From: an uncultured Rhizobium sp.
Lineage (GTDB): Bacteria; Bacteroidota; Bacteroidia; NS11-12g; UBA955
Assembly: GCA_964408945.1 (NCBI GenBank)
Contig: CAYPBJ010000007.1
Location: forward strand, 8,684 to 72,683
Reading direction: 5' to 3'
DNA: 64,000 nucleotides
Every line of letters begins with the position of its first letter. The stretch's first letter is position 1. Position numbers and translations under genes: made by a program. Below the pieces are notes generated by a model, which was not told the DNA's origin, made no database searches, and saw only the letters and a program-made list of their open reading frames with translations. Shown here piece after piece: positions 2,952 to 60,200 of this stretch.

Positions 2952-3620
2952 ATGAAATCTTTAGGATTTTTGGCGGCTTTTTTTATGCTTATAACTTTGG
3001 TAGTAGGGCAACCAAATAAACTTCCTCCCATAGAAGAATCCCCAAGCGGAGGTAATATTTCGGCTCAAGCAGAATCTCCGGCTCCTTTGCTGCAAATGAA
3101 ATCGGTGCATCCACACATTCAAATAGTCAATCAAGTGAATCCGAGAGGGTATTTTTTCAAACACAAAAGCAAAGGTGTAAACGATTTTGATGCTCAAGCA
3201 ACGCACTTCGAAATGAGAATTTATTATCCTGTGCCGCGCACGTGGAGCGATGCAACCCACGCTCAATTTTTAAAAGACATTAAGAGCGATACCATTTCCA
3301 ACATCGTGTTTAAATTTGGCGCTGACAGTCAGGCTAAGCACATGGCGGCCCTTCAAAATGCCTATAAAAATGTTGAACTCGGCTTTTTAGAATGCGACAG
3401 TCTTTGGGGACGACCAGCGCTGAGTTACACCGTCAAGTGCGAAATTTACAATAACGACATGCTCAAATTGGTCAAGAAAACCGTCATCACCGGTCGCAGA
3501 TACATTGTTTTTTACCAGGGACACATGATTGATTTATGGTGGCACGCCACCCCCGATGAGCACCTCTGGAACGATATTGCCAGGGAACAACTGAAGTTGA
3601 TGTCGGTACTTGGTACCTAG
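2952..3620 (+). CDS. Hypothetical secreted protein
   Basis: ORF-track frame 2943..3620. I prefer ATG 2952 (MKSLGFLAAFFMLITLVVGQ, signal-like) because the -7 box overlaps the TTG at 2943. No domain recognised. The last 5 codons are built from heptad-array units. Confidence 0.6.
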   Translation: MKSLGFLAAFFMLITLVVGQPNKLPPIEESPSGGNISAQAESPAPLLQMKSVHPHIQIVNQVNPRGYFFKHKSKGVNDFDAQATHFEMRIYYPVPRTWSDATHAQFLKDIKSDTISNIVFKFGADSQAKHMAALQNAYKNVELGFLECDSLWGRPALSYTVKCEIYNNDMLKLVKKTVITGRRYIVFYQGHMIDLWWHATPDEHLWNDIAREQLKLMSVLGT

Positions 3621-3700
3621 TCTTTGGTACCTGGTCTATGGTACCCGATCCCCGGAACCTGGTACCCGATCCCCGGAACCCGGAACCCGGAACCCGCTAC
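3603..3700. repeat. Heptanucleotide-register array A (14 units)
   Basis: tcggtac ttggtac ctagtct ttggtac ctggtct atggtac ccgatcc ccggaac ctggtac ccgatcc ccggaac ccggaac ccggaac ccgctac. No phase slip. Contains a 21-nt super-repeat and four GGTACC palindromes. Confidence 0.9.
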
Positions 3701-5144: not shown

Positions 5145-6154
5145 AGCCTTTTGCTACTCTTATTTTATTCTTTCTGGGGATGTTTTTACGCCTCAACGCT
5201 CAACGTGATCTATTTGCAAATGTAGCCGCCTCATCCGGAAATTCTGCCGCAATTAAGTTGGGAGCAGATTGGGAAGTCTTCCTAGAAAGGCAACAAGGCT
5301 TTTTCAAAAAGAAAAAACGCTTTCCTACTGCATATATTGGGGTAGAGCTCGGTTATGGCACTTATTTTAATTTTTTAACCCCATTAACAATTGCGCATGT
5401 TGCTCCCCGTTTTGGGGTTACCTATGCTTTCGCCGATCTTTTTGGTGTTTACGGACATCTAAGTTACGGTTGGGCCTCAAAATCTTGTGTCAGAACCGAA
5501 GCTGAATTAGGCGTTCGACTTGGAATTTCATCTTCTTTGGGAATTCAAGCGGGATACAGATTGTTTAACTTCAATACCGCCAACAGTAAATTTCCCAATT
5601 TGAATTTCAATCAAGGAATGGGTTTCGCTGGCTTGGTTTTTTCGCCACACTCCAAAAAAATACAGCCCATTTACAGAGTAAAAAAGAAGTTCTTCGCATA
5701 CCCGTATAGTTTGGGTCTAAAACTCGGACTAAGGAAGCACAGTTTACTTTATGATCGCACTCATTTGGTTTGGAATCTGGATGCTTCTTATCGCTTCCAA
5801 AAATCCAATCGACGCGCTTGGGATGTGGGATTAGAATGGATCACAGATCCTACTTATTTCTATAAACTAGATGGGAAGCCTACTGAGCTCAAATATCCTC
5901 AAAACTCAGAGGTAACCCTAAGGGCTGGTAATTTAATTCTCATGGGACGAATGGCCCTGCGAACCGATTTGGGTTTCTATGTTTTACGTCCAATTACCTC
6001 TACTAAACCCATGTTTTATCAAGGTATAGGGCTTGATTATAGATTGTCGCAAAATTGGGAATTCAGAACGAGATTCAAAACGCACTTCCAACGCAAGTTC
6101 ATCTTTGATTCACCAGATTTTGTTGAAATGGGGGTAGTTTTAAGAATTCAATAA
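5141..6154 (+). CDS. Hypothetical outer-membrane beta-barrel-like protein
   Basis: ATGA start/stop overlap with the upstream gene. Signal peptide MKPFATLILFFLGMFLRLNAQ. Alternating G/Y/F-rich strand-like segments. Confidence 0.55.
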   Translation: MKPFATLILFFLGMFLRLNAQRDLFANVAASSGNSAAIKLGADWEVFLERQQGFFKKKKRFPTAYIGVELGYGTYFNFLTPLTIAHVAPRFGVTYAFADLFGVYGHLSYGWASKSCVRTEAELGVRLGISSSLGIQAGYRLFNFNTANSKFPNLNFNQGMGFAGLVFSPHSKKIQPIYRVKKKFFAYPYSLGLKLGLRKHSLLYDRTHLVWNLDASYRFQKSNRRAWDVGLEWITDPTYFYKLDGKPTELKYPQNSEVTLRAGNLILMGRMALRTDLGFYVLRPITSTKPMFYQGIGLDYRLSQNWEFRTRFKTHFQRKFIFDSPDFVEMGVVLRIQ

Positions 6155-6155
6155 C

Positions 6156-6190
6156 CAGGTACCTGGTACCTGCTACCTAGTACATAGTAT
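6156..6190. repeat. Heptanucleotide-register array B (5 units)
   Basis: caggtac ctggtac ctgctac ctagtac atagtat. Fills the 35-nt convergent spacer between stops at 6154 and c6190. Confidence 0.8.
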
Positions 6191-19188: not shown

Positions 19189-21459
19189 ATGAATTCTATC
19201 AGCAAGGTTATTGCTTTATTCCTGTTTTTCGGTGCCATTCATGATTTGACTTTTGCTCAATCTAATGGTTCATCCAATATTGATTTTAATAATTATCAGC
19301 CTATTTATTGTTCTGGAGAAGTTCCGTATAATCTCAAGAAATTATCTAGTGCAAAAGCTCAAGAGGAAGTGCGAAGAATTAGATCTTCCAAGTCTTCGGG
19401 TAGGGATCGAAAGCGCGAATTGGAATTTGCCATTCAATCTAATTTCTTGGAAGATCAAATTTTAACTTCAGGGCAAATTCTCTATGGTGATCCAATGACG
19501 AATTACATAGAAAAGGTGGGCCTAAAAGTGTTAGCTTCTAAGCCTGAATTACAAAGCCAAGTTCAATTTTTCGTGCTTCGTTCTCATGTACCAAATGCTT
19601 ATGTAACTCATCATGGGCTGGTTTTTGTGAGTTTAGGATTATTAGCTAGATTGGATAACGAAGCTCAGTTAGCCGTAATACTTGCTCACGAGTTGCAGCA
19701 TTATATATTGAAACACTCCTTGATTGCATACAAAGAAGCTAAATATGTAAGTGGTTATTCTCGAGGGTCTGATTTAGACGAAAGAATCAAAGCATTTTAC
19801 AAATTCAACGTTGGGCAAGAAGAGGAGGCTGACAAAAAGGGTTTTGAAATGTTGAGTCAAACAGAATATGACTTTTCTGAAGGGATCAATGTGTTCGAAA
19901 ATTTAAAGTACCAAGACCATCCATTTTTAGAAGCTCAATGGAGCATAGACTCCTTTGAAACCAGATATTACCGTTTTCCTGAAAAACTAAAATTAAGTGT
20001 AACTTCACTTTTAGAGGAAGCTGAAAAAAAGGATAGAAAACGTATGGAAGAAGAGCTAAACGATGCATATTCTTCTCATCCCAACCTCGATAAAAGAATC
20101 ATGGCATTGCAGGGTGACGTTAAAAGCGTAAATCTTTCTGGAAAAAAGAAATTTCTATTTTCTAAGGAAGAATTTGAATTGGTTCGCAGAATATCGCGTT
20201 ATGAACTTATTCTACTTTATGTGCGCCGAGGTGATCACGGTCGGTCGTTATATTTGACCCGTGTTTTTGAATTGTTGTACGGTCCATCACCTTTTATCTC
20301 TAGGGTAAAAGCTATGAATGCCTACGCTTTGGCAGAACATAGATGGAAACTTAAAGATTTAAATGCCTACGGTTGTTCAGTGTTAGATAATAGAGGCGGT
20401 TGGCGCCCTTTGAGTGCAGCACTCCTTAAGTTAGATGCAAAAGAGTTGAATTCATTGGCTTTAAAAGTGGTTTTAGAAGAAAAACTACGTTATCCTTCTG
20501 ATGTTTTCATTGATCAACTGGGTGCAAAGTTGTTAAATATCACCCAATCCATTGGGGTGATAAACCTTGATGAATACCTGAAATTCAGTCTTGACTCATC
20601 TATTAAAAGCGAAGTTCAGCTAACAACGGGTGGTGGACTAGTTAAGCCAGGTCAAATTTCCAGTAATCCTGGTGTGAAACCATATCATTATGGCTCTATT
20701 TATCATCTTCTTAAACAAAAGAATATTGCCAATTATGTAGATATCAATAGAATAACCTCTAACTCTCAGAATGCATCACCGCGCAAAGGGTTTCGTGAAA
20801 GAATGGCGGAGTTAGATCAAGTGAACCGCAAGAGATATCAAAAAAGCCTCAACGAATCACAGAAAATTTTTGTACTTCAACCCAACTTCAGTTACTATTC
20901 TTCCAGCTTTGGTGGTGTAAATAAGCGAAATTATTTTGGCGAAGAAACCAAGAAAATTGAATTGTTGAAATCTTGGAATTGGGTTATCAGAAACTCCCAA
21001 ATACCAGCCGAAATCGTTGAAAATATCGCCCGAGAGGGCTACAAAACCGAACAATTGGTTAAATACAGTCAACTCAACGATTGGCTAACTGAGCGATTGA
21101 ACAATGATACTCAAGAAATGATTTTGTTTTACTCTCAATTTGTCGATCAGTTTACAGAGACCCAAAAGGAACCCTTAATTTGTTGGGAAGGGTATGAATA
21201 TAAATCTACTAAACGCCCTTTCTTAATCAATGATTTTCTTTACGCACTGATGTTCCCCATTTATACCCCCATTTATTTGTACAGTCAATTTAAAATAGAT
21301 TACTACACCGAAGAAACAACGGTGGTTTATAATATGCGCACTTCACGATCAGTGATGAATCGGGTTAAACGCAAGAATTACCGTATGATTGATGATTATA
21401 ACAAGGCCCAAATTTATGAGACACTTTATGAAATTTCACATTTACCAAGCAATCGTTAA
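19189..21459 (+). CDS. M48-family zinc metallopeptidase with long C-terminal extension
   Basis: Signal peptide. HELQHY (HExxH) with a downstream EEEADKKG Glu ligand region. Confidence 0.7.
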   Translation: MNSISKVIALFLFFGAIHDLTFAQSNGSSNIDFNNYQPIYCSGEVPYNLKKLSSAKAQEEVRRIRSSKSSGRDRKRELEFAIQSNFLEDQILTSGQILYGDPMTNYIEKVGLKVLASKPELQSQVQFFVLRSHVPNAYVTHHGLVFVSLGLLARLDNEAQLAVILAHELQHYILKHSLIAYKEAKYVSGYSRGSDLDERIKAFYKFNVGQEEEADKKGFEMLSQTEYDFSEGINVFENLKYQDHPFLEAQWSIDSFETRYYRFPEKLKLSVTSLLEEAEKKDRKRMEEELNDAYSSHPNLDKRIMALQGDVKSVNLSGKKKFLFSKEEFELVRRISRYELILLYVRRGDHGRSLYLTRVFELLYGPSPFISRVKAMNAYALAEHRWKLKDLNAYGCSVLDNRGGWRPLSAALLKLDAKELNSLALKVVLEEKLRYPSDVFIDQLGAKLLNITQSIGVINLDEYLKFSLDSSIKSEVQLTTGGGLVKPGQISSNPGVKPYHYGSIYHLLKQKNIANYVDINRITSNSQNASPRKGFRERMAELDQVNRKRYQKSLNESQKIFVLQPNFSYYSSSFGGVNKRNYFGEETKKIELLKSWNWVIRNSQIPAEIVENIAREGYKTEQLVKYSQLNDWLTERLNNDTQEMILFYSQFVDQFTETQKEPLICWEGYEYKSTKRPFLINDFLYALMFPIYTPIYLYSQFKIDYYTEETTVVYNMRTSRSVMNRVKRKNYRMIDDYNKAQIYETLYEISHLPSNR

Positions 21460-22213
21460 GCGCTTCATTTTATTGGGCACTTTGTGTGGGATGTTTTTCG
21501 CTCCCGCGGATATTTTTTCTCAGTCTAACCCCGGATTTTTAGGCGCCCGACACGGATTATCTGTAGGATATAGTTTGCATACAGGAGGTCTGCTCCGCGC
21601 AATGGTAGGAAATGGCAATGAAACCACTAAGTTATTAAATTCGGGTTTTAGGGTGGATTATGAAATGGCTAAAAGTCAAGGATTCGCTTGGCTCTTTAGC
21701 TATCGTAATCGGAGCGACGTTGTAGAAAGCGATAATTATGGTGGGGTTTATTATGTTGAATCAACAGGAGGCATCCAACTAATCAGTTTTGAATCGGGGT
21801 CGTTAAATTACTCTGTAAATGAGTTCGCTGCCGAAGCGCGATTCTACAGCGAACGAAAAGGAGCAGTGGCCCCTTTTGGGTCTTATGTAGGTTTAGAATT
21901 GAGTGCATCAAACTGTTCACCAACGAGCGAAGACGTTGTTTGGACAGCTGGTATGAATTTTCCAAAATATTCTGGCAGTTTAACTTCTATCGCTACATCT
22001 TTGAACTTTGGGGTAAAGCGCATGATCACTAAGGAAATAGGAATCAATGCTCATTACGGTTTTGGCTTCACCGTATATCAAACGGGAAATGTCAAATTGG
22101 GTTCAGAAGATGTGGCTACCAACTCAAAAGATTTTTACGACTACGCAATTGCTCGCCGAGAGTTAAATGCCAAGCTGCTGCAAGGCTCAATTTCTGTGAG
22201 TTATTTGTTTTAA
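21428..22213 (+). CDS. Hypothetical outer-membrane/secreted protein
   Basis: Signal-like MKFHIYQAIVKRFILLGTLCGMFFAPADIFSQ. Start uncertain (21389, 21416 or 21428). Overlaps the upstream gene. Confidence 0.5.
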   Translation: MKFHIYQAIVKRFILLGTLCGMFFAPADIFSQSNPGFLGARHGLSVGYSLHTGGLLRAMVGNGNETTKLLNSGFRVDYEMAKSQGFAWLFSYRNRSDVVESDNYGGVYYVESTGGIQLISFESGSLNYSVNEFAAEARFYSERKGAVAPFGSYVGLELSASNCSPTSEDVVWTAGMNFPKYSGSLTSIATSLNFGVKRMITKEIGINAHYGFGFTVYQTGNVKLGSEDVATNSKDFYDYAIARRELNAKLLQGSISVSYLF

Positions 22214-22216
22214 TAT

Positions 22217-22342
22217 CTGGTACATGGTACATGGTACATGGTAGCAGGTCGAGGGACCAAATACCTGTGACCTGTGACCCGCTACCAACTACCCGCTACC
22301 AACTACCAACTACCAGCTACCAACTACCAACTACCAACTACT
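22217..22342. repeat. Heptanucleotide-register array C (18 units)
   Basis: ctggtac atggtac x2 atggtag caggtcg agggacc aaatacc tgtgacc x2 cgctacc aactacc cgctacc aactacc x2 agctacc aactacc x2 aactact. No phase slip. Fills the convergent spacer. Confidence 0.9.
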
Positions 22343-23162
22343 ATGGAAATTTAGGGTATTTTTGGAAGTCTGGTTTGCGCTTTTCTAAGAATGCGTGTTT
22401 GCCTTCTTGAGCTTCTTCGGTGAGATAATAAAGTAGGGTTGCGTCACCGGCGAGTTCCATGAGTCCATGTTGACCGTCTAATTCAGCATTGAAAGAGCGT
22501 TTGAGCATTCTGATGGCCATTGGACTGCGTTCCATGATGGTGTTGCACCAATCTACGGTTTCATCTTCGAGTTGGGCGAGCGGTACTACTTTATTGACAA
22601 GTCCCATTTTCTCGCATTCGTCTGCTGTGTATTGTCTGCACAAGAACCATATTTCACGGGCTTTCTTTTGTCCAACGTGGCGAGCAAGATAACTGCTTCC
22701 AAATCCGCCGTCAAAACTTCCCACTTTAGGGCCAGTTTGGCCAAATTTAGCATGGTCAGCGGCAATGGTTAGGTCACAAACTACGTGAAGAACATGTCCT
22801 CCGCCAATAGCATACCCATTCACCATGGCAATCACGGGTTTTGGTAGAGATCTGATTTTCTTGTGCAAATCAAGAACGTTTAGACGTGGAATTCCAGAAT
22901 CATCAACGTAACCACCAATGCCTTTTACGTTTTGGTCACCGCCAGAGCAAAATGCCTTGTCTCCAATTCCGGTAAGAATTACCACTGAGATTTGTTGGTT
23001 TTCGCGGCAATGATCCATAGCATCAAGCATATCGGTTACGGTTTGAGGACGAAATGCATTGTAAACTTCGGGACGATTGATGGTTATTTTGGCAATTCCT
23101 TCATGGAATTGAAATAGGATGTCAGAATAGTCTTTGATGGTTTCCCAATTTCTTTGGCTCAT
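22341..23162 (-). CDS. menB: 1,4-dihydroxy-2-naphthoyl-CoA synthase
   Basis: Crotonase fold with a typical MenB N-terminus ([28 protein letters not shown]) and GGDQ/GGG motifs. Confidence 0.9.
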
Positions 23163-60004: not shown

Positions 60005-60200
60005 TTATAGTCCATAGTCTGTAGCCCGAAGCCCGAAGACCAAAGACCAAAGACCAAAGTCCATAGTCGATAGTCGATAGTCGATAGTCGATAGTAAGGG
60101 ACTACAGACAACAGACTTTGGACTGCAGACTACAGACTACAGACTAGTGACCAGAGTCCCGGTACCCGTTACCCGTTACCTGCTACCCGGTAGATGGTAC
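60005..60200. repeat. Heptanucleotide-register array D (28 units, 196 nt)
   Basis: Parses without a phase slip from the base after the icmF stop to the base before the rhodanese stop. The two halves are approximately reverse-complementary (see findings). Confidence 0.95.

Follow-up and report, generated by a model that had tools for sequence, protein, structure and literature searches.

The 18 heptads lying between menB and its convergent neighbour (array C, positions 22217–22342 of the window; by 'the window' we mean the whole 64,000-nucleotide stretch of DNA analysed here) are an ordinary member of the known class of heptameric long SSRs (Mrazek 2007; Rehm 2015), having the tandem units, the excess of period 7, the variation in unit number and the G-rich strand beside the 5′ ORF that characterise the class. 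Array C is one of 128 arrays, mainly non-coding and each 49 nt or longer, found in the same genome (G000; 2.43 Mb, 72 contigs, 39% GC; an uncultured member of the Bacteroidota, judging by its menB relatives). Its two opposed arms are both rich in G and T, around a T(A/G)GT core, when read on the strand running out of the gene beside them. On balance, we believe the arrays are best explained as a lineage-specific bloom of heptads, driven by slippage and filtered by orientation, with the periodic hairpin that can be drawn for array C arising as a by-product.

Exact parsing of array C gives 18 x 7 = 126 nt, reading ctggtac atggtac atggtac atggtag caggtcg agggacc aaatacc tgtgacc tgtgacc for heptads 1–9 and cgctacc aactacc cgctacc aactacc aactacc agctacc aactacc aactacc aactact for heptads 10–18, with a single 7-nt phase running unbroken across the centre. 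The original prediction had described 18 phased heptads at this position, starting 3 nt past the TAA of the upstream gene (which ends at 22213), finishing 2 nt into the stop codon of menB (CTA on the + strand, i.e. TAG) and switching from GGTAC-type to TACC-type units. All of this is borne out, the heptads themselves by exact coordinates, by Tandem Repeats Finder (TRF), which returns three period-7 blocks (Table 1), and by a shuffle-controlled pattern search, in which (ACC N4)x5 gives nine matches in the window, every one of them within array C (0.00 expected; 100 shuffles).

The 261-aa protein encoded upstream has no Pfam match, and nor does its counterpart on the strain contigs, where the gene is called at 265 aa; judging from its barrel-like C-terminus, the product may be an outer-membrane barrel. 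No ORF is found inside the menB spacer in any allele examined. Array C sits 3′ of both genes and not in a coding sequence or promoter, thus lacking the placement of a phase-variation contingency locus, and whole-unit changes within it leave both coding frames unaltered. Its units hold GG only (GGTAC, GGTAG), short of the four or more GGG tracts required for a G-quadruplex.

Table 1. Features of the menB spacer and its flanking genes, other heptad arrays of the window and the TIGR02436 cassette of G000 (positions are those of the window unless a contig is given).
Feature	Position	Strand	Description
Upstream convergent gene	21428..22213	+	261 aa; stop TAA 22211-22213; C-terminus ..SVSYLF
Left arm, RGT-type (F)	22217..22246	+	CTGGTAC ATGGTAC ATGGTAC ATGGTAG CA; proximal 3′ region of + gene
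TRF block	22218-22243		TGGTACA x3.7, 100%
Centre	22247..22258		GGTCGAGGGACC; GGTC/GACC mini-palindrome; sole part kept across strain and species alleles
Right arm	22259..22343	-	+ strand ACY-type (..CTACCAA..); menB sense strand RGT-type, TAG TAGTTGG TAGTTGG..
TRF block	22263-22279		ACCTGTG x2.4
TRF block	22282-22341		CTACCAA x8.6, 88%
menB	22341..23162	-	1,4-dihydroxy-2-naphthoyl-CoA synthase family, ECH_1; stop TAG 22341-22343, in phase with array
Other three heptad arrays of window	3605-3696; 6154-6183; 60007-60192
TIGR02436 cassette	C14:49915-50773		G000; locus L164:1124-1982

Looking across the whole of G000, tandem repeats of period 7, 14 and 21 predominate, with 244 merged loci amounting to ~20 kb; period 7 itself covers 17.8 kb, compared with ~1.4 and ~1.5 kb for its neighbours, periods 6 and 8. 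Read on their G/T-rich strand the heptads have a common core, T(A/G)GT(A/C), and are highly diverse, numbering 181 distinct GT-anchored heptamers (AGTCCGT, AGTCTGT, GGTAGTT, GGTACAT and GGGTTTC being examples); units of the form GGGNNNN are present in arrays other than array C. Of the 27 genomes in the genus, only those of a single clade show the bloom: with an 8-unit GT-phased pattern there are 952, 705, 333 and 135 matches in its four members, versus 0–37 in the other 23 genomes. No core or termini common to the array copies, as would be expected of REP or MITE elements, could be found in G000, arm families differing and centres being heterogeneous; a MITE-like conserved central core was accordingly rejected. 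The arrays are also a main cause of breaks in the assembly—31 of the 128 sit at a contig end, the assembly having 144 such ends—so that their true number is probably higher than the one counted. As an independent test, 400 kb of contiguous sequence from the relative G024 yielded only seven arrays, too few for the purpose.

Arms were classified by scoring 21-nt windows for RGT (F) versus ACY (R) trinucleotides, G–C skew having been dropped as a classifier since it misassigned units of the AGTCC type, and were related to gene calls that are crude, consisting of longest ORFs only. Within the arrays of G000 there are 48 switches from F to R and one from R to F (p = 2e-13), the sole exception being a small block in array D; the architecture thus lies beyond chance, as had been argued for array C from its resemblance to array D. 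An F-to-R arrangement is its own reverse complement, hence the 5′ arm is G/T-rich on whichever strand the array is read. Two-armed arrays in tandem and divergent spacers are likewise F-to-R, and the distal arm there meets no stop codon.

With respect to placement, convergent spacers hold 33 of the 97 classified arrays (34%) vs 13% of all spacers (p = 8e-8), and divergent spacers are depleted. Where an array abuts a stop codon, the offset lies between −12 and +13 nt; in tandem spacers the complete two-armed array is found against the stop of the upstream gene, not against the next start. Single arms show the same preference: of those touching a stop, 14 are sense-F and 4 sense-R, and of those no more than 25 nt from their nearest gene, 19 lie on the expected side and 7 on the other.

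The two strands of an arm differ markedly in their content of stop triplets, at 7.1 per 100 nt on the F strand (992 TAG, accounting for almost all) versus 1.6 on the R strand. Of 170 arms, 114 leave none of the three frames open when read as F, but only 25 do so when read as R. TAG serves as the stop of 47 of the 76 genes abutted by an array (62%), compared with 255 of 1896 genome-wide (13%; p = 3e-21), and where the stop is overlapped by the array it is TAG in 30 of 33 cases. In about 30 genes the stop is the first TAG of the array, suggesting that arrays have run over native stops and taken their place. On the sense strand of menB we read ..TTT CCA TAG TAG TTG GTA GTT GG.., the stop being supplied in the phase of the array; in most array-free congeners, MenB ends in TAA. 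The richness of the F strand in TAG, and its closing of frames, explain in concrete terms why a coding end can be adjoined or overrun in the F-sense orientation only. This argument cannot be the whole or general cause of the polarity, because the GGGAATC repeats of Xanthomonas are stop-free yet obey the rule (PMC4692102), and because the far arm of an array in a tandem spacer faces no stop. G/T-richness and stop-richness are, moreover, confounded as causes.

Strain variation in the menB spacer was examined in ten metagenome contigs with identical MenB, three of which have a scaffold gap within the array. Spacer lengths are 127 (this genome), 120, 120, 113, 113, 106, 141 and 51 nt; the series 127/120/113/106 nt, with MenB unchanged, indicates that the array changes in 7-nt steps, in keeping with the slippery, length-variable structure that had been proposed. 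One allele, with ~98% identity across both genes and the spacer, is missing exactly three right-arm units, and another has one unit fewer and a few substitutions. Arm families differ among the alleles of 51–141 nt, with the centre (GGTCGAGGGACC) conserved.

The sister species G005, G013 and G024, whose MenB is 98.5–100% identical, also carry heptad arrays in the menB spacer, made of different units; orthologues of the window arrays A, B and D, again with other units, are found in G005 and/or G013 and G024 wherever the sites could be located. The presence of an array is therefore kept at each site, and its sequence is not. Among these close relatives the 7-nt phase and the inversion of the arms are retained in the orthologous menB spacers, and unit sequence and unit count change, the outcome that the original prediction had proposed looking for. 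Further afield in the genus, G001 and G017 have menB-spacer heptads of other families in which the G-to-C order is retained, in G002 and G021 this spacer contains a bidirectional terminator of the classical kind (a hairpin with T/A tracts), and other distant congeners have nearly no spacer or different neighbours. In 80 more distant Bacteroidota loci no period-7 array was seen in the menB spacer, with the exception of L044, where one follows menB immediately, at the end of a contig.

Folding array C with RNAfold reproduces the ladder of 5-bp helices and 2x2 loops originally drawn for it, and both strands fold beyond their shuffles (−40.7 kcal/mol, z −3.6, for the + strand; −54.7 kcal/mol, z −4.3, for the − strand). 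The ensemble is diffuse, the MFE structure of the + strand having a frequency of 0.014, which is consistent with many alternative registers. One may ask whether array C is a selected, periodic RNA hairpin—a bidirectional terminator without U-tracts, or a protector of 3′ ends, that replaces the canonical terminator for both convergent transcripts. Like a bidirectional intrinsic terminator, it lies between convergent genes and has hairpin-capable inverted symmetry; a search of 21900–22700 for GC-rich stem-loops followed by a U tract gives no terminator-like site; Rfam covariance models identify no family in the menB spacer (the sole match being at chance level and outside array C); and at the equivalent spacer, G002 and G021 have the classical terminator described above. 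Unlike such a terminator, array C has no uninterrupted GC-rich stem and no U/A tracts, and its pairing is weak and register-ambiguous, with 4 units facing 11 and a + strand centroid from which most helices drop out. Alleles that range from 51 to 141 nt, with differing arm families, also speak against selection for a hairpin, and we consider this reading unlikely.

The relationship between the two arms of an array bears on the question. Had they been shaped for mutual pairing, as was suggested for array C, or had one been copied from the other, an arm should match its own partner best; instead, genome-wide, complementarity is lower between the arms of one array than between arms exchanged among arrays, both by the 5-mer cosine of the left arm with the reverse complement of the right (0.074 for own, 0.191 for swapped) and by duplex energy (−0.55 versus −0.77 kcal/mol per nt; P < 5e-5). 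Among 47 arrays the own arm is never the best partner (P < 5e-5). The deficit persists in arrays of up to 130 nt, for which assembly bias is unlikely (P about 0.01–0.02), and array C is itself no more than average, ranking 10th of 48 with −0.80 kcal/mol per nt. Own arms not being the best matched, the z-scores of the folds reflect the RGT/ACY core common to any F and R arm; pairing follows from this core together with the orientation rule, and is not specific to the menB spacer. The periodic hairpin accordingly looks like a by-product of two opposed G/T-rich arms rather than a selected feature. Of the earlier interpretation, then, the geometry, the variability and the non-chance architecture stand, and what finds no support is the idea of arms shaped for mutual pairing, which weakens the reading of a selected hairpin.

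As single RNA strands, arms fold on themselves more stably when read as F (−0.28 kcal/mol per nt) than as R (−0.14), this being so in 152 of 165 arms; the left arm of array C self-folds at −10.3 kcal/mol over 39 nt. Cleavage by SbcCD was considered as the cause of the non-complementarity of arms and rejected: SbcD (TIGR00619) gives no match above cut-off in any of the 27 genus genomes, array-rich and array-free species alike (the Bacteroides thetaiotaomicron control was positive), and so SbcCD offers no explanation of arm avoidance; this hairpin nuclease may be missing from the lineage.

With regard to termination more broadly, terminator-like sites (a hairpin plus T-tract) occur in 6 of 29 convergent spacers with an array versus 47 of 89 without (p = 0.003), a partial exclusion that makes terminator substitution possible at convergent sites such as the menB spacer. 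Of 50 arrays in tandem spacers, 22 are accompanied by such sites, which may come before, inside or after the array. Replacement of terminators is thus not a general property of the arrays, and a minor role for array C as a 3′-end structure is possible.

In the slippage-driven bloom that we favour, replication slippage would both add and remove 7-nt units. Mismatch repair of the MutS type handles 7-nt loops poorly. Arrays would then expand until coding sequence is met; at the 3′ end of a gene, the orientation tolerated would be the one that places G/T-rich, TAG-carrying units on the sense strand only, as a sense-F strand would close all three frames and could furnish the stop codon, in the manner of menB. 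The interrupted hairpin would result from the opposition of two arms with a common RGT/ACY core, and might add some 3′-end structure or termination at sites where relatives have a normal terminator, although it is not optimised for pairing.

Several other routes to such a bloom were rejected. Loss of mismatch repair is contradicted by the presence of MutS1 in G000 and of matches to it in 27 of 27 genomes (above the family cut-off in 21, the rest being fragments in incomplete assemblies). Addition of units by a reverse transcriptase, in a telomerase-like fashion, finds no RVT_1 domain to perform it in G000, G005 or G013. Growth by extension at the central break is at odds with a conserved centre and variable arms. 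For polar outward growth, period-7 identity in the outer halves is 0.84 as against 0.76, a test biased by the setting of array boundaries, and the menB allele of G005 has an identity gradient opposite to that of outward growth.

A different possibility is raised by TIGR02436 (PF05635), the 23S rRNA intervening-sequence (IVS) protein, an Avd-like four-helix bundle; Avd belongs to diversity-generating retroelements, and a 23S rRNA IVS consists of a long inverted-arm stem with the four-helix-bundle gene in its loop. The family is represented in 18 of the 27 genus genomes, with a copy of 118 aa in G000 (C14:50280-50636, within the cassette of Table 1). Nearly every copy in the genus with intact flanks is bracketed by inverted tandem-repeat arms, array-poor species included; around the copy G021:C120 there are none. 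The period of the bracketing arms is 7 in ten genomes (array-poor ones again among them), 9 (GGATTAGAC) in three, 10 (GGTTTATRAA) in three and ~16 in one, and their polarity is constant, with a G/T-type left arm and its complement on the right irrespective of the strand of the gene. Bracketed loci were drawn from L161–L186 and L192–L221, the phylum sample being 30 loci from many Bacteroidota families; here, an inverted-repeat score of at least 30 is reached by 15 of 29 gene-centred windows versus 0 of 116 shifted controls (p = 1e-13), and the arms are mostly of period 7–8 with an AGT core, the left arm having G>C in 26 of 28.

It follows to ask whether array C is the cargo-less stem of such an IVS-like cassette, either descended from or produced by that system. 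In Bacteroidota the stems around TIGR02436 genes are built of tandem heptads, and they share with array C both the G/T-left polarity and the AGT-type core. At one orthologous site, G005 (L188, C17) and G013 (L187, C14) keep the TIGR02436 gene, which in G024 (L189, C1:~635200-635440) has been lost, its leader and heptad arrays remaining. Gene and arrays also co-occur across genomes (2 x 2 counts of 13, 5 and 1, 8; p = 0.004, with kin genomes not independent of one another). Set against this, G000 has one TIGR02436 gene for at least 128 arrays; no allele or relative of the menB spacer has been found with the gene; and array centres have, as noted above, no conserved core or termini, nor is there a reverse transcriptase. 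Many arrays of G000 flank housekeeping genes, and the idea that they bracket special cargo was rejected on finding truA, rnhB, purQ and pdxH between them. Array C itself has inverted arms with a G/T-rich left, but no four-helix-bundle gene between them, and it differs from IVS and Avd elements further in lying outside rRNA. We therefore regard a cassette origin for array C as distinctly unlikely. That bacterial heptamer repeats in general are the stems of IVS-like elements, the autonomous form of which carries a TIGR02436/Avd-like gene in its loop, is similarly a long shot; were it true, orphan two-armed arrays would be cargo-less derivatives or products made in trans, G/T-left polarity would be their signature, and heptamer repeats would have in the TIGR02436 protein the partner that has long been missing. 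We found no published account of tandem-repeat bracketing of TIGR02436 genes in the searchable literature, and see this link as the most interesting open possibility.

Lastly, it is highly improbable that the array provides sites for a single-strand binder with a 7-nt footprint of the cold-shock-domain type (B. subtilis CspB binds heptamers, with the consensus GTCTTTG/T (PMC1904285), sister species have (GGTCTTT)n arrays, G000 has one CSD gene, and arms avoiding mutual pairing would leave such sites single-stranded), or else a loading site for Rho in the right arm of the + transcript (C-rich, G-poor and unstructured at −0.4 kcal/mol over 87 nt, compared with −18.4 kcal/mol for the − strand), given, for the former, 181 different heptamers that turn over between strains and, for the latter, an argument that serves only one of the two transcripts.

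Scattered lineages of bacteria are rich in intergenic heptamer repeats, for which neither origin nor function has been explained in decades. The STRR heptamers (STRR1–3), reportedly described by Mazel and colleagues in 1990, are said to be intergenic tandems of heterocystous cyanobacteria; read on one strand, their units share an RGTC-like core, and array C resembles them without being a member. The TAACTGA repeats of Beggiatoaceae, Cyanobacteria and some Bacteroidetes (MacGregor 2015; PMC4679880) take an AC-type orientation before start codons and the reverse after a stop, which agrees with our orientation rule. Both differ from the present arrays in units and hosts, and are usually described as runs of single orientation.

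The G-rich heptamers of Xanthomonas (GGGAATC) and Nostoc (GGGGAYT) have their G-rich strand near the 5′ neighbouring ORF, whatever the orientation of that ORF, and immediately past stops it is the coding strand that is G-rich (Rehm et al. 2015; PMC4692102). In common with the arrays of G000, they are intergenic, genome-wide 7-nt tandems that are depleted between divergent genes and variable among close relatives at conserved sites, with inverted pairs having been reported (PMC4692102). Unlike theirs, the units here have a T(A/G)GT core and are mostly without GGG tracts, so that G-quadruplex formation is not general; the arrays are also far longer and typically two-armed, in a low-GC Bacteroidota host. 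Long SSRs with units of 5–11 nt, heptanucleotides dominant, were described by Mrazek, Guo and Shah (2007), with a sporadic phylogenetic distribution and polymerase slippage as the proposed origin, and it is from this account, as relayed in PMC4679880, that arm inversion, avoidance of self-complementarity and capture of stop codons set the present arrays apart.

The genus lends itself to a natural comparison, in that it offers array-rich and array-free species, many strain alleles, a candidate protein partner in TIGR02436 and sites with an array in place of a canonical terminator. The rules seen here—near-absolute orientation, arms that avoid matching each other, and arrays that furnish TAG stops—are testable.

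Two further repeats were seen in the menB spacers of relatives. In G013 (L083) and G024 (L084), a GC-rich unit of ~91 nt (..CTTCGCCGGAGACTTTGTGACGTAGAGACTTACGCTTCGCGTTGCTTTGCGCCTTTGGCGTTGC..) is positioned between the heptad arms; it is duplicated in G013, is present also in the G013 orthologue of window array A, and may represent a small element inserting at the centres of arrays. In G010 (L095, 1056-1499), a 38-nt tandem repeat (CGTCCCACCGCGACCGAAGGGAGCTCCCACCAGCGAAG; 11.7 copies, 91% identity) follows directly after menB, occupying the spacer that in G000 is held by heptads.
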